64,000 nt of DNA, taken from Octopus vulgaris (taxonomy: Eukaryota). The notes beneath the pieces were generated by a model. It searched no databases and was not told where the DNA came from. It worked only from the letters and a program-made list of their open reading frames with translations. Position numbers and translations under genes: made by a program. Shown here in pieces: positions 4,945-53,003 of this stretch; positions within the stretch are counted from its first letter, which is position 1; each line of letters begins with the position of its first letter. The DNA is taken from the NCBI GenBank assembly GCA_951406725.2, contig OX597815.1:139562001-139626000 (forward strand), read 5' to 3'.

Positions 4945-5370
4945 ATTAGAAATATTAAATTTCTAAATCTCTCATAGAGATATGTACGGTGGTGGGGCGA
5001 TAGAATGGTTGTATACTGTCAATCTAACGTGAACGTGACAGTAGGGGGTTTACATCACCGCTATTTAGCCCTAGGAAGCATCGACACTTCCTGATGGCTT
5101 TGACACATTATTCCTGTGTCCTTTTATACATTTACGAAGGGGAGACAAACACCCCCAGCAGCCAGGCCTGCATCTAGAGACACGCATGTTTCAGGATCTT
5201 TGTCCTTCATCGGTCTAGAGTAGCAGACGGCCGTCAGCCGCGAATATCTGTCCCGATCTGCAAATGTATATATCTAATTTTCAGTGAAGTTTATTCACTG
5301 ATTACCAAAATTAGAAATATTAAATTTCTAAATCTCTCATAGAGATATGTACGGTGGTGGGGCGACAGAA
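4945..5370 (-). mobile_element. Retrozyme-like HHR element, 365-nt unit plus 61-nt terminal direct repeat
   Basis: 4945-5005 is repeated at 5310-5370 with 1 mismatch; internal HHR at 5173-5219; homologous to 23273-23741 and 52568-53003. Confidence 0.7.
5173..5219 (-). ncRNA. Type I hammerhead ribozyme motif (U4C core variant)
   Basis: Minus strand UCUAGA-CCGAUGA-A-GGA(caaaga)UCC-U-GAA-ACA(ugcg)UGU-C-UCUAGA: all three stems pair and the cleavage triplet is GUC. Confidence 0.75.
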
Positions 5371-5374
5371 CAAA

Positions 5375-6637
5375 TATCAGTTCTGTCTTTTTTAAAATTG
5401 AATGAAATTTAATAGTATTTTAGAATGTCTAATGGAATTTAAAATTATTGTTAAGCATTTGTGTACATTTAAACTAATTAAATATTATTTTACAGAATAA
5501 TAAAATTAAAATGTCTTTGATTAAACCCATTCTAACATGTAAGTATCCAAAGAGCATTTGAGGCACATAATGCTTTATGAGTACAAAAAAGGAAACTCTG
5601 CAGCCGAAGCGACTCAGAACATACACTCCGTTTATGGGAAAGAATACTTGAATGAAAAAACTTGCAGAAGATGGTTTGCAAAATTCAGAAGTGGAGATTT
5701 CAGACTTGAAGATGATGATCGATCAGGATGTCCAGTTGAGTTTGATGATAAGCTCCTTGAGGCATTACTTGAAAATCCTGCATTATCAGTTGAAGAATTG
5801 ACAATAAAGCTTCGTTCAAACCATACAACTGTTTATCGTCATCTTCAACAACTTGGAAAGGTTCCTAAACTTGGAAAATGAGTGCCTCATGAATTGTCTG
5901 AAATCAACCGCAAATTTCGAGTTGGCATCTGCTCTTCTCTCAGTTCTCGCGAACTCATTTCACCCTTTTTGGATAGACTCGTGACTAGTGACGAAAAATG
6001 GATCTTCTATCGAAATGTTAAACGTCGTAAACAGTGGCTTGGTAAAAGGGAAAAAGCTCAACCACAACCGAGAAGGGAACTTCATGGGAAAAAGGTTTTT
6101 CTCTCTATCTGGTGGGATTGCAAAGGAGTAATTCACTTTGGATTGTTACCATCTAATGCAACAATCAATGCTCAAGTCTACTGTCAGTAATTAAAGCGTT
6201 TTAACCAAGCTTTGAAGAAAAAAAAGACCCGCTTTAGTTAATCGAAAAGGAGTGATGTTTCATTAGGATAATGCGTGACCCCACGCTGCAAAGATCACAT
6301 CACAGAAGATGGAAGGGCTTGGTTGGGAAAAAATTGCTCATCCACCTTATTTTCCCGACCTTGCTCCTTCAGACTTCCATTTGTTTCGTAGTTTACAGAA
6401 TCATTTGGGAGACATAACTTTCGCAAGCCAGGAGGAGGTCGAAACTGACATTTCAGAGTTCTTCGCTTTGAAACCAAAATAGTTTTACATTGATGGGATC
6501 TAAAAGCTTGTAAGTAGATGGAAGGAAGTCATAGATAATCAGTGAAAGTACATTGATGATTAAATTTCAATTAAATATAACATTTGATCACTTTTCTTTA
6601 TTCAAAATATGGACAGAACTTATGGGATGACCTGATA
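5375..6637 (+). mobile_element. mariner (DD34D) transposon, decayed; left TIR internally deleted
   Basis: Right TIR GGACAGAACTTATGGGATGACCTGA+TA; left end TATCAG/TTCTGTC lacks the middle of the TIR; transposase remnants inside. Confidence 0.92.
5537..6563 (+). pseudogene. mariner transposase pseudogene
   Basis: HTH (RHIMLYEYKKG...RRWFAKFRSG), (W)VPHEL, SDEKW, DNA*PH and SPDLAPSDFHLF motifs with several stops and a frameshift. Confidence 0.92.
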
Positions 6638-6974
6638 GTTTATAGGGAGGGAAGAGAAACCATAAATCATAGATTTCTGTCACATGAAGCAGTAAGTCGA
6701 GCTGTTGAGTTATGCTGAAACCAAAGACTCCTTGTATGTTCAAGGGCAATCATATGAACGGGAAATGTAAAAGCCCTGCAAGGGCCGAGTGATTAAATTA
6801 AACGGGTTGTCATTTTAGATCTAACTGAACCAGGGGATTCTTTCTCTGTGCCTTTTACATGTCTGATATATTCTCACACACACATACATACGCGCACACA
6901 CGCGCTCGCATACGCATTCACATACGCACACAATCACACATACATGTCTTTTCTGCTGGTGCAATATATCAAGG

Positions 6975-7260
6975 TATAAAACTGATGTCTAATGTGCCTG
7001 AAGGTTTGATGTCACCTTCACAATTTTTTTCTAATAGTCAAGAATTCACTTGCCGCGACCTTTAGCAACGCCTACTTATATACAGTTGACACTACCCTTC
7101 ATTCATCCGCAAAACAACATCCTTCACTCAAGTGACGCTTACATGCAATCTTCATGTCTCACCACAAACATATTGCGGCTTCACGAACTAAGACCTCAAT
7201 AACATCCTCGAAGGGTGTCCTTGTAATACTGCTACCTTGATAAGGTGCCAGTACATAAAT
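6975..7260 (+). mobile_element. Highly decayed CR1/Jockey-like reverse transcriptase remnant
   Basis: NVPEGLMSPSQFF resembles GVPQGSVLSPTLF, and YTVDTTLHSS resembles YADDTTLHSS, in the expected order. Confidence 0.35.
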
Positions 7261-8210
7261 ATATAGCAACAAGTGAACTAAAGAAAGACTCTCTCTGCTT
7301 TCCTTGTGGTTCAGATATAAATCTCAATCAAATGTCTCTCAAATAATTCTCGTTGATTTGAATGTATAGGATAATGTAACCTTAAAAAAGACACTAGTAA
7401 TTACTGCTATAATGTCTTTGATTATCTGTCTGTGAAATTGAGTTTACTCTAGATTTGAATGACAATAACGAATGTGAGAAGTTATATCGTGATAATCACT
7501 GATGTATTCTTCTGATAAGAAATTCGTTCCTTTCATTATTTTCCAATTGATAGTTACATTGAGGATACTATCATCCTAGCAAATCCGTGTTACTTAAATT
7601 GAAATATTGTCTGAGTATGCGATATAGCTCGGAAACACCACACAAATACCGGAAACGTCTGCATGGAGTTGTCGGGGTCTTTGATTCTGTTTCTAGAGAT
7701 GAACTTGGAATAATTCTATCCAAAACCCCCAGAACGAGCATGTATGGATATGCTCATTGGAGTTAGCCAAGCTGTTTTACAACTGTCTCGTAATTTTAGG
7801 TGGGAAACTTCCAATCGAGCCACATTCAATGTGATAAGTGCCAATGGAGTTCTTTTTCTTCACTAAATAAATTATCGATTTTCTACCTTCTCTATACTGA
7901 TAATGATATTCTTAACATGTAAGGTGTTTAAGTTGCGTGTGCCATCCACATGCAGCTTAATCACCTTACGTCAGACTTAGTTTTCATAACTAATTACTTC
8001 GACAGCATTCTTTAATGAATATGTAGTATCCTAACTTTTGACAACAGAATGTCTAAATTACTTCAGATGTAGAGGAAACAGAAATTGTTATTAGCTTCTC
8101 CAATCAACCAAACGAAAACTAGGAATGTTGTCATAAATGCTACTCCTCAAATTCTTTGATGAGCCTTTATGGTGGTCACCATGAAAGTTCGTCATTATAT
8201 AGTTTAGTAA

Positions 8211-8413
8211 TACGAGGGGGTATTGAAAAGTTCCTCACTTTAAGGGTATCGTGAAAGGCCTGGTTGGAGGCCCAAGATTCCTAGTTGTTTTACAAGGCTT
8301 AGAAAGCCCAGAGGAGCGCTGCAACAAGTGTGTGAATCTGTGAGGGATCATAATTAACTGATCCTACTATATTTCCTTTTACCCCAAACCAAGAACTTTT
8401 CAGCATCCTGGTA
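8211..8413. mobile_element. mariner-derived MITE (~200 bp)
   Basis: TIRs TACGAGGGGGTATTGAAAAGTTC / GAACTTTTCAGCATCCTGGTA; homologous to 12696-12911. Confidence 0.8.
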
Positions 8414-12911: not shown

Positions 12912-13307
12912 TATATGTATACGTATGTGAATATGCATGTGTGTCAGTATGTATGTATGTATGTAAGTATGTATGTACGTATGCATGTATGTATGTATGT
13001 ATGTATGTATGTATGTATGTATGTATGTATGTATGTATGTAGGTAGGTAGGTAGGTAGGTAGGTAGGTAGGTAGGTAGGTAACCAGGTAGGTAGGTATGT
13101 GCGGCTGATGTATTGTGTGGGTATATTGACTGGCGGATAGCAGAATCGGTAGAGCGTTGCTCACAAAATCTTGAGGTATTTGGTTAGCTCCGTTTACATT
13201 CTGAACTTTCATCCCTACAATCTCACCCCCTCTCACTCTGTCTGCTTCTCTCTCTTGCTCTCTCTCTCTTTCTCTCCCTCTCTGTTAATGATATTATATG
13301 CTATTAA

Positions 13308-13530
13308 GGCGGCGAGCTAGTAGAATCGCTACCGCGCCGGGCAAAATACTTTGCGGCATTTCGTCCGTCTTTACGTTCTGAGTTCAAATTACACCGAAGT
13401 CGACTTTCGCTTTCATCCTTCGGAGTCGATAAAATAAGTACCAGTTGAACACTGGAGGGGGGGGGTCGATGTAATTGAATATCCCCTTTCCCCAAAATTG
13501 TCAGTCTTTGTACCTATAGTAAAAGGGAAT
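13308..13530 (+). mobile_element. tRNA-derived SINE, family B (Meta-domain-like core)
   Basis: GGCGGCGAGCTAGTAGAATCG...GAGTTCAAAT (A/B boxes) and GTCGACTTTCGCTTTCATCCTTCGGAGTCGATAAAATAAGTACCAG; at least 10 copies in the window. Confidence 0.85.
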
Positions 13531-20124: not shown

Positions 20125-21074
20125 GTGTGTCCGATGTGTGAGTGTATGTGTACGAGCGTGTGTATTAGGGTGTGTGTATTGGTAAAACTGTGTAAAAAAA
20201 TATAAATGTTTGTCTATGCTTATGTGTATAAGAATCTTCAAGTTTCTATGCATGCGTGCAAAGGTACACTCACCAACTTACCAACTTAGTTTATTTCTAT
20301 ACAAGCGTACATACATACACACATAAATGCGTACATACGTACGTACATCCATACATACGTACATACATACGTACATGCATCCATACGTACGTATGTACGT
20401 ATGTTCGTATGTATGTATGTCGCTAAGCCGAAAGACATTCTATGTATACGTATATTTGTTTTTTGTCATTTTCCATTTGTTTTCATTATATTGTCCTCGT
20501 CTATTTGTTGGTTTTGTTCTTATTTTTTCCTATTTCCATAGCATGTTTCTATTTACCGTTCGGTCGAAGGACAACACTTCTTTTTTTTTTTAGTATTCTT
20601 GTTTTAAATTTTCCTGTTCTTGTTCGCCTGTCGTGTCCGTTCGTTTATTCCCCTGTGGCTGACACTGCCAAATTGGACAGTGTTGTCTGATGGTATGAAC
20701 TTGGGATGGTATTTGGTCGACATCTGATGAGGATGAAACGTGTTTGCATCTGCTGGGTATTTCTTCTGTTTTATCAACTTAATTGCTTCGCCATCCCTCT
20801 ATACTGCATTTTTCTTTATTATACACACAGACATACATGCATACATACATTATTATGGCTGCCCCTCGTTATCGAGTATGGCCATTGCACGAAGCTTAAC
20901 TGTTACTGGTGCTGTGATCGAATGTGACTTTTTAGCCCAGCTAAAGAACTACAATGTCTCTACATACATACATACATACATACATACATACATACATACA
21001 TACATACATACATACATACATACATGTATGTATGTATGTATGTATATACGTATATATGTATCATCTATCTTTTC

Positions 21075-21425
21075 TTTTTTCAAAAATACGTTTCTCCCAG
21101 CGTCCACTACTTTCCTCACGTTCTGGTCTAATGACCCTCCATATTTGTTTTCGTTCGGTTTCCTTGTATGCCTCCACTGTCATTTTTGTTCCCAGCCTTT
21201 ATTTTAGAATTTATGGGAGCAACTGTCTTAGAAGACTCATATTGTCGTTGAATGATCAAAATAAGTAGTTGATAGACAGCCGGCAACTGATGAAGGGTTG
21301 TTTCTCTTTATTAACTTGTCCTATTTCCTATTTTTTGCGCTGTTTTTGTATTTCACTCATCTTTCCCTCGTTTGTTTACGTATTTCACGTTATTTGCACC
21401 ATTGGTGACGTCCTGTACTCATATA
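21075..21425. repeat. Unclassified interspersed repeat, copy 1 (others at 22851-23260 and 23813-24435)
   Basis: Shared blocks TTTTCGTTCGGTTTCCTTGT...CTCCACTGTCATTTTT...TTTATTTTAGAATTTATGGGAGCAACT...GAAGACTCATATTGTCGTTGAATG. Confidence 0.85.
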
Positions 21426-21428
21426 TGC

Positions 21429-21499
<71 letters not shown>

Positions 21500-21504
<5 letters not shown>

Positions 21505-22766
21505 GAGTTGAAGAAAATAATGGAAGCACTTTAACATTTCAAGCAAATTTATTTTGATATGGAGTAATTTATTTTGATATGACAGTAATTACAGCATGAA
21601 TTCTACGAGGTATGGACTCGTACAAAGTTTCAATTGTTTCCAAAGGAATGTGTGTCCATTCTTCAGTTAAAACAGTCTCCAGTTCTTGTAGTGATGATGG
21701 CGGAGGATATCGACTCCTTACTTGTTTTTCTAAAATGTACCAAAAATGTTCAATAATATTGGGATCTAGGGACTGTGGGGGTCAGATAAGATGTTCAACT
21801 TCACTAGAATGCTTCTCGTGCCATTCAGTAACAACTTTAGCTGTGTGAATTGGTGCATTATCATCCTGAAAGATTGTGTTTCCCTCCGGAAACAGTTCCG
21901 CAATCACAGGATGAATTTGATCAGATAAAAGATGTAAATAGTCTTGACTGTTAATTCTGCCATGAAGGGAAACCATTGGGCCGGCGGATTTCCAAGATAT
22001 AGCCCCCCCACCCCGATCATCATAGATCCTTCTCCATGTTTAACAGTTCTTGTAGTGATGATTAACAGTTTGAAGAAGGCAGTGTGGGTCAAATGCTTCT
22101 TTGGCTGTTTCCACACGTATACCCGGCCGGTGGTTGGAAATAAGGTAAAGGATGACTCGACCGAGAAAATAACATTGGTCTAGGGACCAATTCTGTAGGT
22201 ATTTACTCCACTCAAAACGCTTTGCAACGTTTGTTTTTGAAAGTAGTGGTCTTCTGATTGCAGCCCTCCCGTGAAATCCGGTTTTGTGTGGCGAACAGTT
22301 TTTGTGGAAACTAGGTTCTCGAGGTGGTCATTAAGCTCTGCAGTAATTTGGGAGCTGTACCTTTGTGATCCTTTCTAACAATTCGCGGAAGAGTCCTACG
22401 GTCTCTATCTGAAAGTTTTGGTTTCTTCTGGAGTTTTGTTTCGACGAGGAGGTTTTTCCCTTTTCTCAAAGGCTGTCATCACTTTCGAGACGTCTTGATA
22501 CATAAACATTTCGGCTGTTTTCGTTAGGCTAGCGACTGCCATACGAGTACCTACGATTTGACCTCTTTGAAAGTCCGATAGATTTGTCATTTTAATGAAT
22601 TTTAATTACCTTTTCTGATGATATGTGAAAAGAAACAGCAATTTTAGCAAAACATATTAAGCAACACTAATAATAAATCAAAAAACATAAAAATAAACAA
22701 GCTTTTGACGGTTTTATAAATTTCAAAATTATGATGCTGTGATGCTAGGTGTTTTCATTATTTTAT

Positions 22767-22772: not shown

Positions 22773-22830
<58 letters not shown>

Positions 22831-22850
22831 ATATATTTTATTGAACGCGA

Positions 22851-22931
22851 TGTATCCGTTTCCAAGTAAGTTTATCTTCACCTTTTTGATGCCACTCTCA
22901 ACTGTTTTCTTCCTCCATGCTTCTCTAATCC

Positions 22932-22985
<54 letters not shown>

Positions 22986-23260
22986 CATCGTCCATCTTCC
23001 TTTTCCTCACGTGACAATCTTTCCTTTCCTGCACTGACGTTTAAATGAACAGATGTGTTTTTCTCTCTCTCTCCTGTCTTTTCTCTTTTCAAAAAAAAAA
23101 TACTTCTCCTACCGTTCACTATTTTCCTCTCGTTCTCGTCTGACGTCCTTACATGTTTGTTTTCGTTCGGTTTCCTTGTATGTCTCCACTGTCATTTTTT
23201 TCCCAACGTCGACCCTGCATAAATCCTAAATTTTATTTTAGAACTTATAGGAACAATTGC
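22851..23260. repeat. Unclassified interspersed repeat, copy 2, cut off by the HHR element at 23273
   Basis: TTGAACGCGA...TTTCCAAGTAAGTTTATCTTCACCTTTTTGATGCCACTCTC matches 23813 onward. Confidence 0.85.
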
Positions 23261-23272
23261 TGTTTAGCCCCC

Positions 23273-23740
23273 GTTTCCTGGGGCTAAATAGCAGTAGCAT
23301 TCTTCCCTTTCATGGGACTGCCACATTAAGTTGGCAACATAACATCACTTTATCGTGCTGCTACTGTATAAATCTTTCTGAGAGATTTAAAAATACAATA
23401 TTTCTAATTTTGTCGAATTCACTTGGAATTCTATAAGTTTTCAAAGGCGAATAAGCATCGGCAGCTAGCAAGCCAAGCTACTCCAGACTGATGAAGAGCA
23501 ATGACTCTCAAACTAGACTTTGAATGCTGGCTTTGCTGGTTGGAGGTCCTTATCGTCCCTGTTTGAAAACTTAAGGACACAGAACGCTTATGTCACATAG
23601 CCAACTGGAGACGGTGTTTCTTGGGACTAAATAGCAGTAGCATTCTTCCCTTTCCTGGGACTGCCACATTAAGTTGGCAACAAACCATCACTTTATCGTG
23701 CTTCTATTGTATATACTTAAAAATGCGATATTTCTAATTT

Positions 23741-23741
<1 letters not shown>
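23273..23741 (+). mobile_element. Retrozyme-like HHR element, 343-nt unit plus ~130-nt direct repeat
   Basis: 23273-23411 is repeated at 23616-23741; HHR remnant CUCCAGA-CUGAUGA-A-GAG..CUC-UCAAAC at 23481-23513; homologous to the reverse complement of 4945-5370. Confidence 0.7.
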
Positions 23742-23793: not shown

Positions 23794-23812
23794 TATATTA
23801 TTTATTATTTAA

Positions 23813-23961
23813 TTGAACACGACGCCTCCATTTCCAAGTGAGTTTATCTTCACCTTTTTGATGCCACTCTCTACCCTATACTGTTTTTTCTTCCATCCTT
23901 CTCTATTTCCCTTTTTCATCCCGTCTCTCTTTCACCGTTTTCTACCTGTCTCTCTCTCCCT

Positions 23962-24006
<45 letters not shown>

Positions 24007-24435
24007 GCTTACATGTGACCATCGTCCATCTTTCTTTTCATCACGTAACCATCTTTCTTTTCCTGCACGGACGTTTAAACAAACGGGCGTGTTTTACCCT
24101 CTCTCTCTTCTATCTCTTCTTTTTAAAAAAAGTTTCTTCCAGAGTTCACTGTTTTCCTCTCGTTCTGGCCTAATGACAATCTGTCTTTGCTTTCGTTTAG
24201 TTTCTTTGTGTCTCCACTGTCATTTTTTTTTTTGTTCCTAACTTTGACCCTCCATAAATCCTAAGTTTTATTTTAGAATTTATGGGAGCAACTCTCTTTG
24301 AAGACTCATATTGTCGTTGAATGCTCAAAATAAGGAGTAGATAGACAGCCGACAACTGATAAAGGTTCCTTTCTCTGTATTAACTTGTCCTGTTTATTTG
24401 CACCGTTTGTGACGTCCTGTACCCATATATGCATG
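23813..24435. repeat. Unclassified interspersed repeat, copy 3 (longest)
   Basis: Overlaps both copy 1 and copy 2 in sequence; internal (CT)n tract. Confidence 0.85.
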
Positions 24436-25377: not shown

Positions 25378-25988
25378 ATTTTGTATTATGAATTTGTGGT
25401 AAAACATTTTACCTTTGCCCATATAATACAATAAATGAATTAATTGTATCGCAATTCTTAACATTTATGTATTAACTTTGTTGGGTACTTCACTAGCAAT
25501 ATATTGGATATATGTTATCCCATGGAGGGTTGCATTTACAACCCCTATCTCAATTTGTATATATATATATAAATCTATTGACACACGCACACACACACAC
25601 ACACACACTCACCTGTGTACACGCAAATACACAAAGATACACATACAGCTAGACGTACGCTTATATGTACGTGTGAACATATGTATGTATGTATGGATGG
25701 ATGGTTGGCTGGATGGATGGATGGCTGAATTGTGCATACTATAAATGGCTCCAGTAAAAATGGCGCAGTTAAAAAATATAAGTGAAATAATAGAAAATAA
25801 TGGCACGACAATTAATCGTAGCTTCACCATAAAATAATTAATGCACTTCGTAATATTATATTAAAAGACATTACACTTATTATTATACACAGTTTATTTT
25901 GAACTGCTTCTTTTTTGTGTCTGTGTCTGTGTTCGGGTATTTATTTATTTATATTGTGCCTCATTCGAAATTTTCGTAATTAATACCT

Positions 25989-26219
25989 ATTTCTTTACTA
26001 CCCACAAGGGGCTAAACACAGAAAGGACAAACAAGGACAGAAAAACACATTAAGTCGATTACATCGACCCCAGTGCGTAACTGGTACTTAATTTATCGAC
26101 TCCGAAAGGATGAAAGGTTAAGTCGATCTCGGCGGAATTTGAACTCAGATCGTAGCGGCAGACGAAATACGGCTACGCATTTCGCCCGGCTTGCTAACGT
26201 TTCTGCCAGCTCGCCGCCT
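25989..26219 (-). mobile_element. SINE family B, tandem copy 1
   Basis: Reverse complement of the 13308 family; flanked by TTTTCGTAATTAATACCT. Confidence 0.9.
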
Positions 26220-26237
26220 TTTTCGTAATTAATACCT

Positions 26238-26468
26238 ATTTCTTTACTACCCACAAGGGGCTAAACACAGAAGGGACAAACAAGGACAGACAAACGGATT
26301 AAGTCGATTATATCGACCCCAGTGCGTAAATGGTACTTATTTAATCGACCCCGAAAGGATGAAAGGCAAAGTCGATCTCGGCGGAATTTGCACTCAGATC
26401 GTAGCGGCAGCCGAAATACCGCTAAGCATTTCACCCGCCGTGCTAACGTTTCTGCCAGTTCACCGCCT
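26238..26468 (-). mobile_element. SINE family B, tandem copy 2
   Basis: As above; a third copy of the flank lies at 26469-26486. Confidence 0.9.
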
Positions 26469-26808
26469 TTTTTGTAATTAATACCTTTAGGTCTTTGTCT
26501 GTCTAATTTCTCTATCTACTGCATGCCTTCTAATCTCTTCCACCTCTCCTTTCTGCTGTGATTGCTTACTTTACATATTTGGTAAAAATGTCAAGTATAA
26601 CTATCAGTATCGTTCAACTTAGCTGCTATCTCCTCTTCTTTTTTCTTTTTTCCGCTTCTCTCTTCCTCTTTTCTTATTCTTTCTTCCTTATATGTCACAC
26701 CCCTTTTTTTATTTACTTCTTTTTGTTTTTACTTTTTTTGTATTTATTATTTACATCTTTTCTGTGATATACATTCGTCCTTGTATTAATTCTTAATTAT
26801 TTATTTTA

Positions 26809-27090
26809 ATTTTTACTTTTTATGACATATTTTCCTTAAACTCTTGATTTCTAAAAAGGCTTTTCCAATCTAATTATTATATCTATTTCAATGTTTATCG
26901 GCAAATATATTTTTTCCGTCAAAGTTAGTCGTTTCCATCCAGCGTATTCCTGTAATTTTGAAAAGTTATATGATCCTCTCCATTCATCTCTAAATGTTTG
27001 TTTGATAAGTTACAAAGTATTCAAATTGCTGCCTGATGATTGATTACGTGAAACACTGCGTAACGGTTTCTGAATCTTTTCCGCTCTCCA

Positions 27091-27091
<1 letters not shown>
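26809..27091 (+). repeat. ~280-bp direct repeat, copy 1, with degenerate HHR core (27027-27068)
   Basis: Near-identical to 28074-28355; contains CUGAUGA-uugauuacgu-GAAAC-acugc-GUA. Confidence 0.9.
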
Positions 27092-27156
<65 letters not shown>

Positions 27157-27173
27157 ATGTATATATATAAACA

Positions 27174-27209
<36 letters not shown>

Positions 27210-28021: not shown

Positions 28022-28067
28022 AAAACTGTTACTCAGAGTTTCGCATTCTCCTTCATCGAACAGTTTT
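28022..28067 (-). ncRNA. Degenerate minimal HHR motif
   Basis: AAAACUGU-UCGAUGA-Aggagaaugc-GAA-ACUCUGAGU-A-ACAGUUUU; 8-bp stem I. Confidence 0.55.
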
Positions 28068-28073
28068 GTTTAG

Positions 28074-28355
28074 ATTTTTACCTTTTATCACATATTTTCT
28101 TTAAACTCTTGATTTTTAAAAAGGCTTTTCCAATCTAATTATTATATCTATTTCAATGTTTATCGGCAAATATATTTTTCCGTCGAAGTTAGTCGTTTCC
28201 ATCCAGCGTATTCCTGTAATTTTGAAAAGTTATATGATCCTCTCCATTCATCTCTAAATGTTTGTTTGATAAGTTACAAAGTATTCAAATTGCTGCCTGA
28301 TGATTGATTACGTGAAACACTGCGTAACGGTTTCTGAATCTTTTCCGCTATCCAA
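28074..28355 (+). repeat. ~280-bp direct repeat, copy 2, with degenerate HHR core (28292-28332)
   Basis: Near-identical to 26809-27091. Confidence 0.9.
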
Positions 28356-28359
28356 TATA

Positions 28360-28439
<80 letters not shown>

Positions 28440-28579
28440 TATGTATGTATGTATGTATGTTTTTGGTGCTTTTTAATAAACCATATTACTCTACCTCTGG
28501 TATTCGAGTACTATACTTTCCACTTTGTTTCGCATTTATGTGCTTACTCTGGAATATATATATATAGAGAGAGAGAGTG

Positions 28580-30545
28580 AATCCTCTAAACAAAGAACAA
28601 ACAAGAAAAAGCAATAACGCTAGGACGTGGTACTAGTACTGCATTATCAGACGCTCAAGAAAGGAAAGAAAGAGGATTTAACGTTTCGAGCCAAGCTCTT
28701 TGTCAGAAATAGTAAAAGTCCTAAGGAAGGGAAGACGTAAGGAGAAAATCGCCAACGATACACACGCGGTTACATTTTGAAATGACCGGAAGGGAAAGGG
28801 TGAAGAAAAAGTTCTAAGACGGGAGAGTGCAAGAGAAGGAGATATGTGTGTGTATGTATGTTTGGGTATGTACGTACGTGCAAGTCTGTGTGTGTGTGTT
28901 TAATGATAGCACGTGTATGTGCGTATGTGTGTATGTGGCTTTGGCTGTTTCTACGTGTGTGTGTGTGAGTAGATTTTCTGTGGCTTATTGTCGTAGGAAG
29001 AATATACAGTAAGAATTTTAGGTAGGAATGGCTGTTTTTTGTGTCTCCTTTCACATAAGCGAAGGAGAATGGTCAGCAGAAAGGTGTTTGACTGGTAGCT
29101 TGAAGTATGTGTGTGTGCGTATATGTATATGTTGTGTGTGCGTGTGTGTTTTGTGTGCAATGTGTGCTTGTGTCTGTGTGTGTATGTGCGTATGCGTGAG
29201 GTTGTGTGGGGGGTTGTCTCTGTGGAGCAAATGTGCGTTACTCTGTGTGCGTGCGTGTGTATGTGCGTCTGTGTATGTGTGTGCATGTGTATATATATAT
29301 ATGTGTGTGCGTGTGAGTGTATGTGTGTGTACATGTGTGTGTGCGCGTATGTATTTTGTGTGTGCATGTGTTTGCGCGTGTGTACATGCGTGTATGCGCC
29401 TGTATGTGCGTGTGTGTATGTGTGCGTGTGGATGTATGTGTGTATACGTGAATGTGTGTTGTATGTATGTGGTGTGTGTGTGTGTATGTGCGCGTGTATA
29501 TAGAAATAAAATATAATAAATTATAATAAAAAACGGTTGATAGGGGATAAAGAAGATGTTAATACAAAGTAAAATGGCGCAATAAAAAACAAAAAAAAAA
29601 ACAAAAGATGAAATAAAGTTGCTTTGTTGCAGGAGGTTGTAGAGACACTCATTAGGAGGAGGGGTTCTGTTTAGTCCGAAGGGGAAGTTGTTCGTAGATT
29701 AAGAATATAACGCTGTTCCAGGCGGAGTCGTTAATGTGTGGATCCGTGGTGCAAAGCGAGGCCAGAGAAGATGTTAGAGGGAGCGTGGTTTACCAAGCAG
29801 AAGTGACGGGCGACGGGGGTGTTCGGACGTAGCGAAACATCCCTTAGATGTTCGGTAAACCAGGTGGCTTGTCTGACCTACACATAATTTACCACGGAGG
29901 TTGCATCTAATACAATATATGATGCAAGAGAAGGAATTTATGATGTGAAGAGTGTGCTGATTGGAACCAATGAGGGAGGAAGTATTGGTGATGAAGGAGC
30001 AAGTGTAGCAGCGGGATCTGGAGCACGGGAAGGATCCAGGTGGGGCTGGGGGGAAGAGGAGAAGGTACTACGGATCAGTAGATCGCGTAGGTTCCGGGTG
30101 CGTTTAAAGGAGGACAAGGGTAGGCTGGGGAAAATTGGGCGGGTGGTGGGATCGAGCTGGAGACGACGGAAGGCCCATAGGATCCTCTGACGAAGGGGTA
30201 GGGTGGGGGCGGAAAAGAGGGGAAAGTGGGTGCGGTTTGGGGTTTGGTGTGGGGAAAGAGAGAGGGTAGTGGTGCGATTGATTCGACGAGTGCGGGCAAG
30301 GACGGTTTGGACAAGAGTTGAAGGGTATCCTCGATGCATGAACAGGAGGGCAAGGTACTGGGGCTGGGTCTCGAAATCCTGGTCCCGGTTGCACAAGCGT
30401 CGGAGGCAGAGGAACTGGGAGTAGGGGATGGCCCGTTTGGTGTGGAAGGAATGGGAGGAGGAATGCGGCGTGAGAGGCGTGAAGCGGAGACCCCTACTGA
30501 GGAGTGATCACTCAGCAGCGGATAGAGGGAGGCTTGGTGGTATAG
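28580..30545 (-). mobile_element. 5'-truncated Penelope-like retroelement (RT thumb + GIY-YIG remnant + HHR-bearing 3' pLTR)
   Basis: Minus strand HTKRAIPYSQFLCLRRLCNRDQDFE...RGYP...FKRTRNLRDLLIRS, then IIYCIRC...VGQT...FTEHLRDV...PVARHF...RLRLEQR...PFGLN; a (CA)-rich tract and the HHR lie downstream. Confidence 0.88.
28676..28710 (-). ncRNA. Minimal HHR in the Penelope pLTR (G8A substitution)
   Basis: AUUU-CUGACAA-A-GAGC(uug)GCUC-GAA-ACGU-U-AAAU; palindromic stem III. Confidence 0.7.
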
Positions 30546-31161
30546 TGAACATTTTGAATGTAAGAACATCGAGTTATCTTCTACCTTTTATTGACGTCTT
30601 CATATTTTGTCTAGTCATATCAAAATTCTTTCGAAGAACAAGTAATTTTAAAAGATCTGCAACAAACAATGTAGTCTTCGTTTCATTAAAAAATACCAAG
30701 TTTTTTTGACATCTAATATAAATATTATGTATTTGTATTTGATGCAAATATATGCAAATCATCAACAAACAAATGTCCAACTACTGCCTTATTGATTAAT
30801 AGAACAATTACACCAGTACTAAGTGGGTTAATGGTTTCCTTTCTAAAAATATTATTCTAAACAATATTCGTCTGTGAGAGCTGTTTAAACATATATTTTA
30901 TGTTCTGTCTGAGTTCAGTGATGTTTATCACATTGAGACATTATTTTTGTTGATATTAAAATATATTTGACAACCTCAGTTGAGAGGTGAATCTTAATAC
31001 CACAAAAGAAAATAGAATAGAAAAAAATAAAATAAAATTAAGCTTTAAGACTTAACATTCATCTTGAACCAGGTCAGATAAAAAAAACACCAATATTGCT
31101 TTTTTAAAGGTGCTGTTCAAACATAACCATATAGCTATACATAACTGATCATGGAACAGCA

Positions 31162-32324: not shown

Positions 32325-33118
32325 AGCTCAAGGCCCGAAATTCGGTGGGAAGGGTCCAGTCGATTACATCGAGTCCAGTACATGACTGGTTCTTATTTTA
32401 TCGACCCCAAAAGGACGAAAAGCAAAGTCGACCTCGGTTGAATTTGTACTCAGAACATAGAGATAGCCGAAATGCCGCTTAGCATTTTGTCCGGCGTGCT
32501 GACGCTTCTGCCGGTTAGCTGCCTTAAATGCGATAATTTAATGATAAATACAGTTTATCTTGCTATGAAAAAGCAATGCACTCAGAATGATGAATACGAA
32601 ATAGAAAAAGAAACGAACTTCAGATTTTCAAGTAAAACCCTAGAGTCTGAGGAAGCTAATGATGCTCTTAAGGAAACTAGAGATACTACGAGATGGTAAA
32701 CGGTAATAATTTCAAATTTTGGCACAAAACCGGCAAGTTCAGGGGACGGGATAGGTTCATTAAATCAATTCCAGTATTCAGCTGATATACTTATTTTATC
32801 GACCTCGAAGGGATGGAAGGCAAATTCAACCTCGATGGAACTTGATCTCAGAAAGTTAAGTCAGGCGGAATGCAGCTAAGCGTTCAGACCGGGTGCTAAT
32901 GATTCTGTCAGATCGCCAATAATAATTATTTCTACTCTTTTGGGGGAAGAGGTCTAGTCGATTATATCTACCCCAGTGCGTAACTGGTACTTATTTCAAA
33001 GACTCCGAAAGGATGAAAGGCAAAGTCGACCTCGGCGGAATTTGAACTCAGAACGTAACGGCAGACGAAATACCGCTAAGCATTTCGTCCAGCGTGCTAA
33101 CGATTATGCCAACTCGCC
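32325..33118 (-). mobile_element. Cluster of three SINE family B copies (~32325-32523, ~32712-32917, ~32940-33118)
   Basis: Each shows ATCGAC...AAAGTCGACCTCGG..GAATTTGAACTCAGAAC-like blocks. Confidence 0.85.
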
Positions 33119-33141
33119 ATCTTCATGCTCACCAATAATAA

Positions 33142-34415
33142 TATTGGGTTGTCCGGAAAGTTCGTGCCGATTTTGAAAGGAAAGAAAAAGGTCAATAAAT
33201 ACTTGCCATTACATTTTTAATCAACCAAATATGAACCATTTTGTTGCACAATGCGTCTCCACCTTTCCTTAAACTCGAAAATACCCTCTTCCCAGAATTG
33301 AGGTGGTTTCATGGCAAAGAATTCATCAAGGTATCTTTTCACGTCACCCAAGGAATTGAAATTTTCACCATTAAGATTATTCTGCAGAGACCTGAATAAG
33401 TGGAAATCCGAAGGAGCGATATCTGGTGAATATGGAGGGGGGTAACACATCTCAGCCGAGCTGCAGTAATTCCCAAAGGAACATGCGGTCTTGCATTATC
33501 ATGTTGGAAAGCAACACCCTTCCTGTTGACCAATTCTGGACGTTTCTCTTGAATTGCTGTTTTTAACTCGTCCAGTTGTGTGCAGTATTTCTCAGAATTA
33601 ATTGTCTGGTTACTTGGGAGAAGCTCATAGTACAGAATTCCTTTCCAATCCCACCAGACACAAAGCAAGACTTTTTTAGGGCGAAGACCTGCTTTTCGGG
33701 TGGCTAAGGGTAGCTCATGTCGCTTACTCCAAGATCGCTTTCTCTGAACATTTCGGTAGATAATCCATTTCTCATCACCTGTCACAATTTGCTTTAAAAA
33801 AGGCGCGTTTTCATTCCGTTTATAAAGCGAATCACAGATGGAAATGCGATCCAAAAGTTTCTTCTCACTCAACTCATGTGGTACCCAAACATCGCAGCAA
33901 TTTGTGTACTCGAGCTTTACCAGGTGTCATGAACGACAGCTTTTGATAGGCTGAGGCTTTCTGCCAATTCTCGGGTTGTGCAATGTGGGTTATTCTCAAT
34001 TAATGGCTTGATTTGGTCATCATCTGTAGTGGATGGTCTGCCTGATCGCCCTTTATCTATAAGGCTACCATATCCAGCTCGGAACCTTGCGAACCACTTC
34101 CGTACAGTGCTTTCGGATAAAGAAACATCACCGTAAACTGCGTATATTTCTTTGGTTGCTTGTGAGGCATTTTTCCCTTTACAGAAAAACAAAAGCATCA
34201 AGTGCCGAAAATGAACTTTCTTATCTTCCATTTTAAAGGGTTACAGAATTAACACAGGTTATAGGAACATAAACCTTCTTCCACGAAATGATAACTTAAA
34301 CTGTGCTCTAAATGGAGGTCTAATCAAATCCTATTTTATGGACTCAACCATGTTCTACAATAAGTCGAAAATTAAGCTACTATAAATCAGCACGAACTTT
34401 CCGGACAACCCAATA
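33142..34415 (-). mobile_element. Full-length mariner (DD34D) transposon with TIRs and TA duplication
   Basis: TA-TTGGGTTGTCCGGAAAGTTCGTGCCGATTT ... AAATCAGCACGAACTTTCCGGACAACCCAA-TA. Confidence 0.95.
33217..34231 (-). pseudogene. mariner transposase pseudogene (frameshifted)
   Basis: MEDKKVHFRHLML, RSGRP, WVPHEL, GDEKW, HDNARPH and YSPDIAPSDFHLF spread over three ORF pieces. Confidence 0.93.
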
Positions 34416-37390: not shown

Positions 37391-37862
37391 CACACATACA
37401 CATGCACGCACACATACAGACATACATATATACATACACACATACATGCTTGCATGCATGAAACAGCATTAGATAAAAGTAACGGTGCCCATAACATTTT
37501 TAATGTATATACAAAAGTAGAGTGGTGCTATCTGTAATATTTTGTTTTAGAGAAACTTTTCTCAAGATGCTTTGCGTGTAAAAACCACAACTCGCGCAGA
37601 CAGATGAGAGTGGACCATCAGACACCAATGTTTCTGCCTGATTTAGCCACCTCAGTGATGAACCTGCCCCTTTCAGATATAGATACATATATTTGTATCG
37701 CTATCTCGATATCAGCTCACCTGGTTTCTTCTTATAGCCACTCTTATACACCGTGGATTTAGTACTCAATGAATATTTCAGAGTGAAGTTCAGATTATTT
37801 CAGCACTACTACTTGTTTTCTGTATTGAGCACCTCTAGATCTCATCTGTTTGTATATATATA

Positions 37863-38216
37863 TATAGGGGCTGGAGAAAATAATGGAATCACCTTAAAAT
37901 TTCAAACCAATTTATTCTAATATGGGGTAGTAATTACAGCTTGAATTCTGCGAGGTATGGACTCGTACAAAGTTTCAATTGTTTCCACAGGAATTTTTGT
38001 CCATTCTTCAGCTAAAACAGTCACCAGTTCTTGCAGTAATAATGGTGGATGATACCGACTCCTTACTTGTTTTTCTAAAATACACCATAAAGGTTCAATA
38101 ATATTGAGATCTGGGGACTGTAGTGACCAGATAAGATGTTTAACTTCACTAGAATGTTCCTCGTGCCATTCAGTAACAACTTAAAGATTGAGGTTCCCTT
38201 CGGAAACAGTTCCGCA
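37863..38216 (-). mobile_element. Tc1-like transposon 3' fragment (same family as 21500-22772)
   Basis: Aligns with 21500-21900, including the TIR AGGGGCTGGAGAAAATAATGGAA. Confidence 0.88.
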
Positions 38217-47729: not shown

Positions 47730-47930
47730 AGAAACGTTAGCTCGCCGGGTGAAATGCTTAGCAGTATTTCGTCTGTCTTTACGTTCTGAGTTCAAATTCC
47801 GCCGAGATCGACTTTGCCTTTCATTCTTTCGGAGTCGATAAATTAAGTACCAGTTGCATACTGAGGTCGATCTAATCGATTGGACCCCTCCCCAAAACTT
47901 TCAGGCCATATGGCTAGAGTAAAAAAGAAT
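47730..47930 (+). mobile_element. SINE family B, 5'-truncated
   Basis: GAAACGTTAGCTCGCCGGGTGAAATGCTTAGCAG...GCCTTTCATTCTTTCGGAGTCGATAAATTAAGTACCAG. Confidence 0.85.
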
Positions 47931-49251
47931 ATCTATTACATCTAAGATAGTTTCCTCCGCATTCGTTCTTTTCATCTATCATGTGTGTCTGTTTATATGT
48001 AAATGTGTGTGTGTGTATGCATGCATATATATTTATACACACTCATGACATAGAAAACAGCAGTTTGTTCCTGCAAGCCAGCATACAGTGGGTCAACACA
48101 CCGTGAGTTACAGTTCATATTCGTGGATGGAACAAACTCTTGGTTTGGTGGAAGGTAACTTGGTAGTGGACTATGGAAAACCATAAAAGCTAAGGGGCAA
48201 GTCTGGAAAGAGTCGAGGAAAGACAGAGAGCGAGGATTAGTATTAGGTTGCTAGATGTGATAAGCGTCAGAGATATCTAGCGAAGAGTGAGAGACGAAGC
48301 CGAAAGTAAGAAATTTTCTTATGCATGCCGTAAGTATCTGGGACATGAGGTATTCCGGAGTGTGAAGTAATGCGTCAAGATAAAACAAGACATCGATGGC
48401 TTCCTCCCTCTCAGCCATGCTGCGACAAGGACGTGGAACCGCTACTAGTGCCTGATAAAGAGAATATATGGGGAAAGAGGGATTAATCCAAGTAAATCCA
48501 ACAGTGAGGCCAACACGTGTGACTGTTTATGGAAGAAAGAGCCATTAAGAATATGAAGGTAGGAAAAGTAGTTAGGCCAAAAGAGACAGTTGCCGAGGAG
48601 CTTGTATTATTCGGTCAAGTAGAGGATGCACAGGTAACTCGCTTAGTAAATCAGGTTATCCAGAAAAGTGTCACCCCTGCCCTCCAATAACTGGCATAGT
48701 AGTGATATCTTCAACCCTGGGCGGACAAAAAGTTATGTTTTGGCAAGAAATAACTACAGAGGCATTAAACTAATGAACCATGTCATAAAAGTAGCAGAGA
48801 ATGTTATAACAGATGTTTAAATGAAATACAAATTTGTATTGTGATAAATGAGGAACCATGAATACTTTTTCTAAGAGAAGAAGCAACAGGAGAATTTCTG
48901 AGCCAAGCACAAACCATTACGCCTAGCATTTGTTGGCTCGGGAAGCCTTCAGATACGATACGGGAAATGAATTCTGGCAGTCTTTAAGAAAACTGAGTTT
49001 AGAAGAATCGCTTCGGGAAGCTGAGTAAGCTGTATACATAGAAGATATTAGTTAAATTAGATTTGCAACGAAATGAGTTCAGTAATTTAGCATGCAAATA
49101 CTTATCATAAGAGAAGCTCTCACCTCACTCTCTTTATGATAATTTTCCAGGTCATAACAGAGGAACTCGAGGCTCGTTGCTCGTGAGAACTCTTGTATGA
49201 GACAAGTTAGCTCTCTAGTTCTATATTTAAGAGATGAGGAATTATGTACAT

Positions 49252-49494: not shown

Positions 49495-49769
49495 GTGAAC
49501 CAAATCAGTTCTAAACGTGGAAACAAAGACTATCAATAGCGAAATAACAATTCTTGGTCTGAGAATACGGAGTAAATAGGAACTGTATAAGTAAAGTAAA
49601 CAATGGAGGTACAATATAGCTACCATAGCATATTAAATATACTAACAGAAAAGGAATTCATATATAATAAATGCACAGGAGCACTTAGCAATAAGAATAA
49701 ACAAGAAATGAAATGTTTGAACGAAGTAGTGGATAGTTGTTTTTATCTATGAGGCTTAAACAACAGTGG

Positions 49770-50070
49770 CGATGAAGGTTGGGAAAAATTAGTTTCTCGC
49801 AAGCAATTTAAGGAGTTTCTACCTCGGTTGACAATAAAACGCTTGCCTCCTTGAGTAAAGGGTAGGACTGCATGACGCTTGTATTACGAAGTACGATATT
49901 AGTAGTGAAATATAGGCGCTGAACGTGAAGGACATACAAAGACAGGAAAGAAATGAGGCGAGTACAATCCGCAGAGTGTGCAATGTTAGTAAGCATGACC
50001 ATTAGAGCACAAGTATGCTGAAGGTAAAAACCAAACATCAGAGGTGTTTCCTTGATGCACTGAGAGAAGA
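49770..50070 (+). mobile_element. RTE-clade LINE fragment, decayed
   Basis: KEFLPRLT...VKGR...DACI...SEI*ALNVKDIQRQERNEASTIRRVCNVS matches the RTE region downstream of the RT core. Confidence 0.65.
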
Positions 50071-50127
50071 TTTTGGTAGTAATCTTTATCTGCTTTTGTC
50101 TTATTGTTTACTCGTTTCAGTTGTGAA

Positions 50128-50450
50128 GGCGCGTGGCTTAGTGGTTAGGGGCATTCATTCGGTTCATGATCGTATGGTCGTGATTTCAAATACCCGGCGG
50201 CGCGTTGTGTCCTTGAGCAAGACACTTTATTTCACGTTGCTCCAGTCCACTCAGCTGGCAAAAATGAGTAGTACTTGTATTTCAAAGGGCCAGCCTTGTC
50301 ACATTCTCTGTCACGCTGAATCTCCCCGAGAACTACGTTAAGGGTACACGTGTTTGTGGAGTGTTCAGCCACTGGCATGTTAATTTCACGAGCAAGCTGT
50401 TCCGTTGATCGTATCAGCTGGGACCGTCATTGTCGTAACCGATGGAGTGC
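50128..50450 (+). mobile_element. tRNA-derived SINE, family C
   Basis: GGCGCGTGGCTTAGTGGTTAGGG...GTCCTTGAGCAAGACACTTTATTTCACGTTGCTCCAGTCCACTCAGCTG, shared with 35363. Confidence 0.85.
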
Positions 50451-50479
50451 TCCTTGTTTCGGTTATTACCTGCTGGGAG

Positions 50480-50770
50480 ACCGTCTTGAAAGATTTAGTC
50501 GAGCAGATCAACCCCAGTATTTAATATTTTAAGTTTGGTACTTATTCTATCGGACTCTTTTGCCGAAACCACTAAGTTACGAGTACGTAAACACACTACC
50601 GCTTAACAACCGGTGGTTGAGGACAAAGACAAACACGCACACATAGATGTATCCATATTTATACGAGGGGCTTCTTTCAGTTACTGTCTATCATATCCAC
50701 TCACAAGTCTTTCGTCGTCTGGGGGCTATAGTAGAAGATACGGTCGGGAAGCAAGTTTCTTACTATCTAG
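50480..50770 (-). mobile_element. SINE family A fragment
   Basis: TAGTCGAGCAGATCAACCCCAG...GTACTTATTCTATCGG...GGCTTCTTTCAGTT matches 3000-3260. Confidence 0.8.
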
Positions 50771-51012
50771 CCAGATGAATGAAAATAATCAAGCGCTGTA
50801 TGTAGGACACTGCATGAGTTGAAAGTAGAAGGATGTGTGAGTATATATAGGTGATGAGGGATCAATTCAAAATGCCGATCCCGCGAAGATGAAGGGCCGG
50901 GCAACAAGTGGAGGGACGCGGTATTGAAACAGAGACGACCAGTCTATATCAGCGTGGAGAAAAGAATGAAAACTTGATACTCATGTGTATATGTATATAT
51001 TCTAACAGTGTG

Positions 51013-51054
<42 letters not shown>

Positions 51055-51129
51055 AAAGAGAGAGAAAGAAAGAAATATTACTGTGTGTGTGCGTGTGTGT
51101 GTGTGCGAGAAAGAGAGAGAAAGAAAGAA

Positions 51130-51184
<55 letters not shown>

Positions 51185-51552
51185 TGTGTCTTTAAGGAAA
51201 GATATGTTATCTCTGGACTTACTTAAGTTAGAGAGCCGAAATCATTTATCAATAATTACTAAAGAAAGTAACGGCAAAACAGAGATTCTATCAATTTATA
51301 TTGATATTCAGTACTCAGATGACCTCTATTCTACATCTCATAATTTCGTCGACATATAGTTTGCAAGGAAAATTAAACTAATTCCAAGACATAAGAAATG
51401 CAGCTGAAATATATCGATACTTTCTCTCACACACTTTCGTACACACAAAGACGTACATAAGTATCTGTGCAGATATATATATATATATATATATAATACA
51501 TCAATATATAATTATATACATATACATACACTTACTTTTTCATATAAATAAT

Positions 51553-51604
<52 letters not shown>

Positions 51605-52409
51605 CATACATGTGTGTATGTATGCATATATATACATATATATACATGTATATATGTAATTTTAAACATATATATATAATTTTATTTATATATATATATA
51701 TTTATATATATAAAAATTATATATATATATATATGTATAAAATTATATGAATATATGTATATGTAAGTATATGTAAATATCTTTGTGTGTGTGTATGTGC
51801 ATATATATATATATATATATAAAGTTACACATATATAAAATTATATATATATATATACAGAAAGAGTGCGGTAGTGGGGTATGACTAACAAAAAGAATAG
51901 CTACTAGTAAAAATATATTTAAGTCATGACCACATATACAGAGATATATCACTTTTTGGTTTCATTTGTTAACTTTTCTGTTAATATAGAGCCAAGTATG
52001 TTTCAGGCTATGTTAAGGAATAGGAACAAGGTGTATATCAAACGTACAGCAACTTCTTTGATCATTTCAGAGTAAATATATCCATTAAAATCAGTTACTT
52101 TTCTCATGACGAACTGTAGAGTCTCCACCGAGCGCCTACGGTACATTAAAAGTCAGAAATCACGTTTTTTTTTTCGTTTTTTCATTCGGCTATTTTCTGG
52201 TAACATACACATGTTCACGAAACAGATATACATATACACATGCCTCCTATTTGTGTGTGTGTAAGCGTGTATGTTTGTGTGTATGTATGTGTGTGTATAT
52301 ACACGCATGTACGTATATACATTCATACACAGAAATGCACATACACATACACACACGTACGAGCACACATAATGTAAGTCTTGATATCTGTGTTGTGTGA
52401 AAGCACACG

Positions 52410-52447
<38 letters not shown>

Positions 52448-52567
52448 CATATATATATACATAGTACATACATACATACATACATACATACATACATACA
52501 TACATACATACATACATACATACATACATGCATACATACATACATAAATACACACATACATACATAC

Positions 52568-53003
52568 AGGACTCCACTTTACGTTGGGAAATAGATTTTA
52601 CTATGAAGTATAGTAACTACTTAGATCTCATTCGGAGATTTAAAACTAGCTGTTTTACTCATTACGAGATCAGTAACTGTCTGTCACTTACATATTTATA
52701 TACTGTGAGTAGTGTCGAGTAAGCTGCTGCCTCTGACCGACGGTTGGCCAGCACCGAGGACGGGAAATTATCCCAAAACCATTGGTCTGTTGGTACTGCT
52801 AGTGAATAGGAGGGAGTAGTACGCTCACAGTATATTTCAGACACAGAATAACCATCTGGAAAAGATGTTTTCTTGTGGTTAAATGGTAGTAACATGGTCT
52901 TACGCAGGCCTGCCACCTTACGCTGGCAAATAGATTTTATTATGAAGTATCATTACTACTTAGATCTCATTCAGAGATTTAAAACTGGCTGTTTTACTCA
53001 TTA
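52568..53003 (+). mobile_element. Retrozyme-like HHR element, 339-nt unit plus ~97-nt direct repeat
   Basis: 52568-52664 is repeated at 52906-53003; internal HHR; flanked by (CATA)n and (TA)n. Confidence 0.7.
52748..52793 (+). ncRNA. Type I HHR motif (U4C and G12A substitutions)
   Basis: CCAGCA-CCGAGGA-C-GGGA(aauua)UCCC-AAA-ACCA(u)UGGU-C-UGUUGG; all three stems pair and the triplet is GUC. Confidence 0.65.

Follow-up and report, generated by a model that had tools for sequence, protein, structure and literature searches.

Metazoan retrozymes without long terminal repeats (non-LTR retrozymes), as described in the cited parts of Cervera & de la Pena (2020, PMC7229834), are non-coding elements with a unit of about 350 nt (350-390 nt in mussel, 330/350 nt in axolotl), a GC content of 41-43%, a type I hammerhead of the canonical type and a predicted circle that is self-paired; they carry neither LTRs nor a 4-bp target-site duplication (TSD), and Penelope-like elements (PLEs) are present in their hosts. 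The three inserts analysed here, E1, E2 and E3, which lie within a 64,000-nt stretch of Octopus vulgaris contig OX597815.1 (hereafter the window), are alike in each of these points. We consider it likely that they are dispersed offspring of an old, many-copy, non-autonomous family of non-LTR retrozymes mobilised by PLEs. The published elements are dimers to multimers, whereas E1-E3 are dispersed inserts of 1.2-1.4 units with one hammerhead each and, in E1 and E3, a U4C core, known from DNA alone, and no cephalopod is among the hosts named in those parts of the paper.

Solo retrozymes, reported by Li, Clavereau & Pollet (2026, bioRxiv 10.64898/2026.07.22.740005), are likewise dispersed monomers, regarded as offspring of active tandem retrozymes, and they share with E1-E3 the range of unit length and, probably, the PLE origin. 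Vertebrates (31), insects (3) and one coral make up that survey, which includes no mollusc; insertion ends are not described in the cited parts of it, and under its rule of two consecutive complete hammerheads the E1-E3 loci would not be 'active'. PLEs themselves (Craig et al. 2021, PMC8557442; Frangieh et al. 2024, PMC11167929) are described as having, like E1-E3, a partial tandem structure and a fixed internal 3' end after a stem-loop, as well as AT-rich or (TA)n targets, 5' inversion and a type I hammerhead (PMC8557442, PMC11167929; also Cervera & de la Pena 2014, PMC4209133). They differ in carrying an open reading frame (ORF) for reverse transcriptase (RT) and GIY-YIG, which E1-E3 lack, and in having a minimal type of hammerhead where E1-E3 have the full 6/4/3-bp type (PMC4209133); the 3' end, moreover, lies 216-234 nt past the cut site in E1-E3 and about 90 nt past it in the anole PLE (calculated from PMC11167929). 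In plant LTR retrozymes, both LTRs contain a type III hammerhead and there is a 4-bp TSD, whereas each of E1-E3 has one type I motif and no TSD.

The units of E1-E3 are non-coding, low in GC and within the 150-450 nt of retrozyme units, and a self-paired unit structure like that of retrozymes is predicted from the three sequences; the head-to-tail series of at least two hammerheads that also defines a retrozyme is absent at the E1, E2 and E3 loci. By analogy, E1-E3 appear to behave like retrozyme offspring, with cleavage, circles and tandem sources putative. No report of a cephalopod retrozyme or hammerhead was found in the literature searched, and Dfam, Repbase or supplements may already list the family or its U4C variant; as far as that literature shows, the inserts extend animal retrozymes to cephalopods.

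Three related inserts in the window

E1 (4945-5370, minus strand) is 426 nt long and consists of a 365-nt unit plus a 61-nt terminal repeat (1.17 units). The 5' copy of the repeat (5310-5370, minus strand) is 98% identical to the 3' copy (4945-5005, minus strand), with 1 of 61 sites mismatched at a period of 365 nt, and the 3' copy has two hairpins at its end, followed by (TA)n (4929-4946, no strand) and then (GATA)n. E2 (23273-23741, plus strand) comprises 469 nt, or about 1.4 units, with a period of 343 nt and a terminal repeat whose copies measure 139 and 126 nt owing to a 13-nt deletion in the 3' copy and differ at 11 of 126 sites. E3 (52567-53003, plus strand; 437 nt, about 1.3 units) has a period of 338-339 nt and a terminal repeat of ~98 nt with differences at 10 of 98 sites. 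Unit length is thus 338-365 nt, GC content 0.41-0.43, and the longest ATG ORF on the circularised units 32-77 aa. E1 is probably the youngest copy of the three; E2 and E3, in which the repeat copies are 9-10% apart and the cores decayed, appear to be older.

Local alignments of one period each are colinear, with 59% identity for E1/E2 (z = 24.4), 54% for E1/E3 (z = 8.0) and 56% for E2/E3 (z = 11.8). None of 300 dinucleotide shuffles matched any of the pairwise scores, and the best unrelated segments of the window (728 segments, median score 37) reached 70-79, below every E1-E3 pair. This alignment, which the initial annotation had proposed as a check, is therefore significant, and what that annotation had described at the three loci largely stands: the positions (with the start of E3 now at 52567), the periods, the terminal repeats of differing length with a nearly common 3' end, the (TA)n abutting each of them, and the ordered shared blocks, which are present in all three inserts with small deviations (GAGATTTA is deleted in the 3' copy of E2). 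A sequence model of E1-E3 retrieves all three inserts together with their repeats and gives one weak extra match in the window (E 2.1); the three copies so found are all 426-469 nt long, and no sub-unit fragments of the family were found by this model in the window.

Insertion marks

The 3' ends of E1-E3 fall within three alignment columns and each abuts (TA)n, for which the chance is about 0.007 per end; at E1 the adjoining tract is (TA)8, and E3 is placed between (TACA)n and (TA)n. The 5' neighbour of E1 is a mariner element, recognised by Pfam HTH_48 at 5543-5878, whose left end directly adjoins the insert; loose ends lie at 5387-5389. E2 carries a 5' inversion (23258-23293, no strand) in the form of a 14-nt inverted copy of its own start with 8 nt between the arms, and the 13 of 14 pairs formed by these arms are equalled in 2 of 300 background windows. 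An 8-bp fold-back at the 5' junction of E1 was rejected as not significant (22 of 300 background windows), and no fold-back was found at the 5' junction of E3. Partial tandem structure and (TA)n are thus present in all three inserts and a clear 5' inversion in one of three. Partial tandems, 5' inversions and a (TA)n bias are hallmarks of PLEs, the bias being ascribed to the cysteine linker of Neptune (PMC8557442), and PLE reverse transcription is reported to start internally in a stem-loop after nicking of AT-rich DNA (PMC11167929). These marks support the link to Penelope-like mobilisation that had been drawn from the sequence earlier.

The ends also bear on two other explanations. Retrozymes form satellite-like arrays (PMC7229834; bioRxiv 10.64898/2026.07.22.740005), and arrays readily yield partial repeats, so that E1-E3 might be pieces of a tandem satellite that spread as DNA, by excision and reinsertion of circles or by array deletion, with no reverse transcription. 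We regard this as very improbable, since one end is fixed within three columns beside (TA)n in all three inserts and the other end is variable, a polarity to be expected from target-primed copying and not from random DNA breaks. The second explanation is that the inserts are ordinary pseudo-LTR (pLTR) remnants of 5'-truncated autonomous PLEs: hammerheads occur in pLTRs (PMC4209133), (TA)n targets and inversions are PLE features (PMC8557442), and retrozymes are described as related to pLTRs (bioRxiv 10.64898/2026.07.22.740005). In E1-E3, however, the upstream copy of the 3'-terminal sequence runs directly into the hammerhead arm at a period of 338-365 nt and leaves no space for an ORF, the ORFs present are 77 aa or less, and a tblastn search with 15 PLE proteins matched none of the three inserts, its only match in the window being at 29677-30555. 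Ordinary pLTRs with an RT and GIY-YIG ORF between the repeats are thereby excluded locally, in line with the initial annotation, and we hold it improbable that the inserts are such remnants.

Other repeats surround the inserts. Decayed pieces of Tc1/mariner type lie at 5379-6190 (plus strand), 33339-34240 (minus strand), 53090-53300, 55460-55891, 21490-22200 and 37853-38182, two of them confirmed by Pfam and the others identified by eye; E1 and E3 each directly adjoin such a piece, probably because both kinds of element target TA. E2 is flanked by two 72%-identical copies of another repeat of ~450 nt (22820-23256 and 23794-24291), a third copy of which lies at 21061-21326; these flanking copies are too diverged to be taken as a target duplication.

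Hammerhead motifs

The window was searched with a relaxed type I hammerhead descriptor, which matches three loci, namely E1, E3 and, at 37655, one that is unrelated to them. In ten shuffled windows it matched 0-4 loci each, of which 2 in all had no more than one core mismatch. As the scan alone is consequently modest evidence, the case for the hammerheads is carried by their placement in homologous units and by covariation.

In the E1 motif (5173-5222, minus strand) stems I, II and III are 6, 4 and 3 bp long, and a loop of 6 nt closes stem II. The core of this motif consists of CCGAUGA, GAAA and GUC, with C3 at 5213, U4C at 5212, every other core position intact and a predicted cut after 5179. 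Stems of these lengths (6 bp, 4 bp and short) fit the 'canonical' metazoan type I hammerhead, which is distinguished from the minimal PLE type (PMC4209133) and is the type seen in retrozymes (PMC7229834). The decayed motif of E2 (23479-23524, plus strand; C3 at 23488, position 17 at 23518) has G12C, a change of GUC to GAC and only five of six pairs in stem I; it keeps U4, which could represent CpG decay of an ancestral C4. In E3 (52745-52793, plus strand) C3 is at 52754 and C17 at 52787, and the core has U4C, G12A and an extra C before stem II. Stem I extends beyond a 3-nt/1-nt internal loop in E1, E2 and E3, with differing sequences. Since core positions are altered in E2 and E3, E1 alone among the three is plausibly active as a ribozyme. 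The earlier count of two complete hammerheads has to be revised accordingly, as none of the three is canonical (E1 has U4C; E3 has U4C, G12A and the extra C; E2 lacks both G12 and GUC), while the assignment to type I with covarying stems is supported by the descriptor scan and by covariation. With a single motif per insert, lying outside the terminal repeats, none of the three loci is able to release an RNA of unit length through double cleavage.

U4C is known as a variant of viroid hammerheads that has lower activity in vitro yet is functional in vivo (cited in Perreault et al. 2011, PMC3088659), and the viroid substitution is identical to the core change in E1 and E3. It is described there as rare, whereas here it is found in two of three subfamilies and apparently prevails in a high-copy animal family; a core of this kind throughout the family, if true, would be an unusual natural ribozyme variant.

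Predicted fold of the unit

In the three-way consensus fold the hammerhead caps a long, imperfect rod, which is followed first by a hairpin and finally by a multibranch 3' domain. In E1 the predicted rod, an extended stem I, occupies 5127-5269 (minus strand) and the predicted 3' domain 4986-5061 (minus strand), the closing helix of which covaries across E1-E3. The consensus fold energy is -37.8 kcal/mol, compared with -14.3 +/- 3.8 (minimum -25.4) for 150 column-shuffled alignments. Circular folds of single periods in the sense orientation have z values of -5.5 (E1), -3.9 and -3.2 (E2) and -2.4 (E3) and beat 40 of 40 shuffles. Changes on both sides are found in 24 of 71 pairs, a count made after one 4-pair alifold helix had been dropped as an alignment-end artefact; none of 500 shuffles was as high, and sliding gave 4-10. 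The whole unit is thus predicted to have a conserved, covarying fold of rod, hammerhead and 3' domain, which extends the stem covariation noted earlier to the entire unit. Stem I, the internal loop and stem II covary across subfamilies that are 54-59% identical, which argues for selection on the ribozyme fold.

One independent check is in agreement with the fold: a pair broken in E1 at 5055, in the 3' domain, is restored by the letter that holds about 97% of the summed depth in one public run (X1). The end of E1 falls 1 nt past two adjacent hairpins, the first of which also folds in E3 and in the 5' copy of E2. Hammerhead regions folded alone showed no significant stability (z -1.9 to +0.3), three of four isolated 3'-domain folds were not significant, and RNAalifold, applied to the 3' repeats in isolation, recovered no more than two hairpins, in which 1 of 13 pairs was compensatory. 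In the complete unit, the 3' domain covaries outside the ribozyme and is a concrete candidate for a PLE recognition signal.

Copy number and variation

Public sequence runs were examined for the E1 subfamily, to which the run-based counts in this section apply. Words of E1 are present in 20 of 24 listed runs (9 studies, 4 organism labels), and contigs matching 4940-5480, a query that takes in the mariner flank at 5377-5480, number 4,499 and 3,822 in two DNA runs with different organism labels, most of them 90-99% alike and some of them belonging to that flank. None of the 24 listed runs is recorded as containing RNA with E1; two runs guessed to be RNA, which may hold DNA and are not counted as expression, gave 83 and 116 such contigs. 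Summed depth over most of E1 is 10^5-10^6 and that of single contigs about 23-94. Depth is no copy number, but these data imply thousands of copies of the subfamily as an order of magnitude. The initial annotation had proposed a multi-copy family, and both the three dispersed copies in 64 kb and the thousands of variant contigs in two of two DNA runs agree with this.

No difference at a core position, 5212 included, is among the 40 of 91 difference sites listed, all of which have a share of ~50% or more in some run. We infer that most of the subfamily carries C4; a minority U could sit among the other 51 sites. U at the base of stem II (5206) makes up about 30% of the X1 depth and creates a U-U mismatch, like that of HHR_Amex2 in axolotl (PMC7229834, cited part). 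The stretch 5225-5300, where depth is low, is also rich in differences from E1. There is no step in depth at the predicted cut site, a weak observation; contigs cannot show RNA ends. Of nine listed joints in contigs of the family, five are strand inversions. Another copy, seen in both runs guessed to be RNA, stops at 5306, which corresponds to a position 4 nt past the E1 end. Exact-pattern scans gave no match in viral contigs and none in two scans of metagenome contigs, and one match in prokaryote genomes was rejected as a 20-nt chance match with no further similarity.

Mechanism and template

Under the retrozyme reading, source loci with two or more units would be transcribed, and the hammerheads would cut out the unit, which ligation would turn into a circle. 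A PLE protein, probably of Neptune/Nematis type, would then bind the structured 3' domain and nick (TA)n, and reverse transcription would begin immediately past the terminal hairpin, at a fixed position inside the unit that lies 216-234 nt downstream of the cut site; the end of the E1 3' repeat (4945-5005) would mark this start. Copying would cross the resealed or uncut hammerhead site and halt 60-140 nt into a second lap, and the 5' end would be joined by microhomology or fold-back. The catalytic cores of E2 and E3 have since decayed.

Since the 3' end is fixed, the 5' overshoot variable and the sequence continuous across the cut site, the template must have run on without a break beyond the length of one unit, either as a circle or as an uncut multimer. 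Copying of more than one unit from a circle has already been proposed for PLEs and retrozymes (PMC4209133, PMC7229834, cited parts). In favour of a circle are the cluster of lengths, the conserved ribozyme fold and the near-identical repeats of E1, whose divergence (1 of 61 sites) is below the several percent seen between family members, as a single template for both copies would predict. That the lengths all fall at 426-469 nt (n = 3), and that shorter fragments are missing from the window, could fit an enzyme that stalls on its own cDNA when copying a circle. In favour of a linear template are the preference for uncut RNA in vitro (PMC11167929), the attenuating effect of U4C and the fact that a homogenised array also gives identical repeats. 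The data from E1-E3 fit both templates alike. Given a retrozyme origin, we lean towards the circle, and an uncut multimer has somewhat less than an even chance. Of the phrase 'reverse-transcribed past one full circle' in the initial annotation, copying past one full unit holds, and the circle is one of the two templates that fit.

Several observations count against a retrozyme origin. For the only PLE tested in vitro, uncut RNA is reported as the main template and the hammerhead as dispensable (PMC11167929), and 8 of 9 retrozyme dimers from Xenopus are reported not to cleave (bioRxiv 10.64898/2026.07.22.740005). U4C in E1 and E3 implies lowered activity in vitro by the viroid precedent (PMC3088659), and in the predicted fold of lowest energy the core is paired with stem III, so that the active fold costs 3.9 (E1) and 5.8 (E3) kcal/mol, computed without tertiary contacts. 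Rfam gave no match at the gathering threshold over the whole window and, around E1 at E <= 10, 10 and 3 weak matches, none to a hammerhead family, which leaves the hammerhead call to the descriptor scan and covariation. The consensus structure was derived from the same three sequences that were used to score covariation, and by itself the number of compensatory pairs stands out little from column shuffles (27, with a shuffle mean of 17.4 and a maximum of 29). One majority change, at 5230, would break a predicted pair of the E1 rod unless its partner changes too. Antisense circular folds also have low z values (-5.3 for E1, -3.3 and -1.2 for E2, -3.1 for E3), as is to be expected of helices. 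No TSD is evident at E1-E3. A head-to-tail array was not seen, in that none of the nine listed joints goes back 365 nt, in contigs too short to span the repeat; the only hint of one is a contig that goes back from 5176 to 5007 with the intervening sequence undefined. Finally, comparison with the PLE relic of the window, the one PLE compared, gave no sequence link between E1-E3 and the pLTR of an autonomous PLE.

Several of these points would also suit a linear, SINE-like parasite of PLEs that passes through no circle: transcripts of 1.x units, or uncut tandem transcripts, would be copied from an internal start, the hammerhead would be a weak or vestigial inheritance from pLTRs, and the fold would serve protein recognition. 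Uncut RNA was the dominant template of the anole PLE and no reads ended at the cut site (PMC11167929), U4C reduces activity (PMC3088659), there is a single hammerhead per locus, and no arrays or circles were seen in the contig data. We nevertheless judge such a parasite unlikely, because the covariation of stem I, internal loop and stem II between the subfamilies points to selection on the ribozyme fold, because the repeat copies of E1 are near-identical, unlike the ends of an old master of 1.x units, and because the three insert lengths cluster.

Should cleavage and circles be absent, the family would be one more non-autonomous PLE derivative. A retrozyme origin, on the other hand, allows a tentative and more specific proposal, namely that a high-copy octopus retrozyme lineage with a U4C hammerhead spreads mainly as dispersed inserts of 1.2-1.4 units, the PLE RT starting at one hairpin on an RNA circle and stalling soon after one lap. 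If this were true, retrotransposition from circles would have left a genome-scale footprint in the thousands of junctions of the lineage, and the covarying 3' domain would be the RNA signal read by PLE proteins. The family could serve to test a model in print since 2014, in which PLE RTs copy RNA circles more than once around: with a fixed end and a measurable overshoot in thousands of copies, lengths and repeat-pair identity could separate circular from linear templates computationally.

Other elements in the window

A decayed PLE with homologs of Neptune/Nematis type lies at 29677-30555 (minus strand). Its RT core is deleted, homolog residues ~200-229 being joined directly to ~645 onward; the homologs, of ~900 aa, carry RT and GIY-YIG domains and mostly also the cysteine linker. 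The relic was missed by Pfam and by a word-index protein search, and no hammerhead was found near it. In O. vulgaris, 31 PLE families are reported as recently active (PMC13282606).

The unrelated match of the descriptor scan is a type I hammerhead-like motif at 37621-37655 (minus strand), with a stem I of 5-6 bp, A9 missing or changed and a stem III resembling that of E1. It is flanked by two microsatellite tracts, has no terminal repeat and does not align to E1-E3; as a fourth family member it was rejected (z -0.4 to 2.5, missed by the family model). It is possibly a decayed member of another family, or a chance occurrence, of which about 0.2 are expected per shuffled window.

A 249-nt unit is present in 2.1 head-to-tail copies at 25971-26486, with relatives at 13303-13514, 32347-33126, 47730-47932, 58582-59045 and 59851-60074. 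From a B-box-like motif seen by eye, it is a probable tRNA-derived SINE on the minus strand. With a copy number slightly above a whole number of units, it might share the copying route of E1-E3. ARAGORN found no tRNA genes in the window, at E1-E3 or elsewhere; it also misses the probable tRNA-SINEs there and is hence insensitive. A direct repeat of 397 nt, 95% identical, occurs at 26800-27196 and 28065-28460, 1,265 nt apart.

An intronless, divergent beta-tubulin gene lies at 60594-61877 (plus strand). Its product is 98% identical to a protein of Octopus bimaculoides and 84% identical to one of Argonauta, and the remaining listed matches, which are non-cephalopod, reach 76% or less; the 98% identity fits the cephalopod origin that had been assigned to the family from the letters alone.

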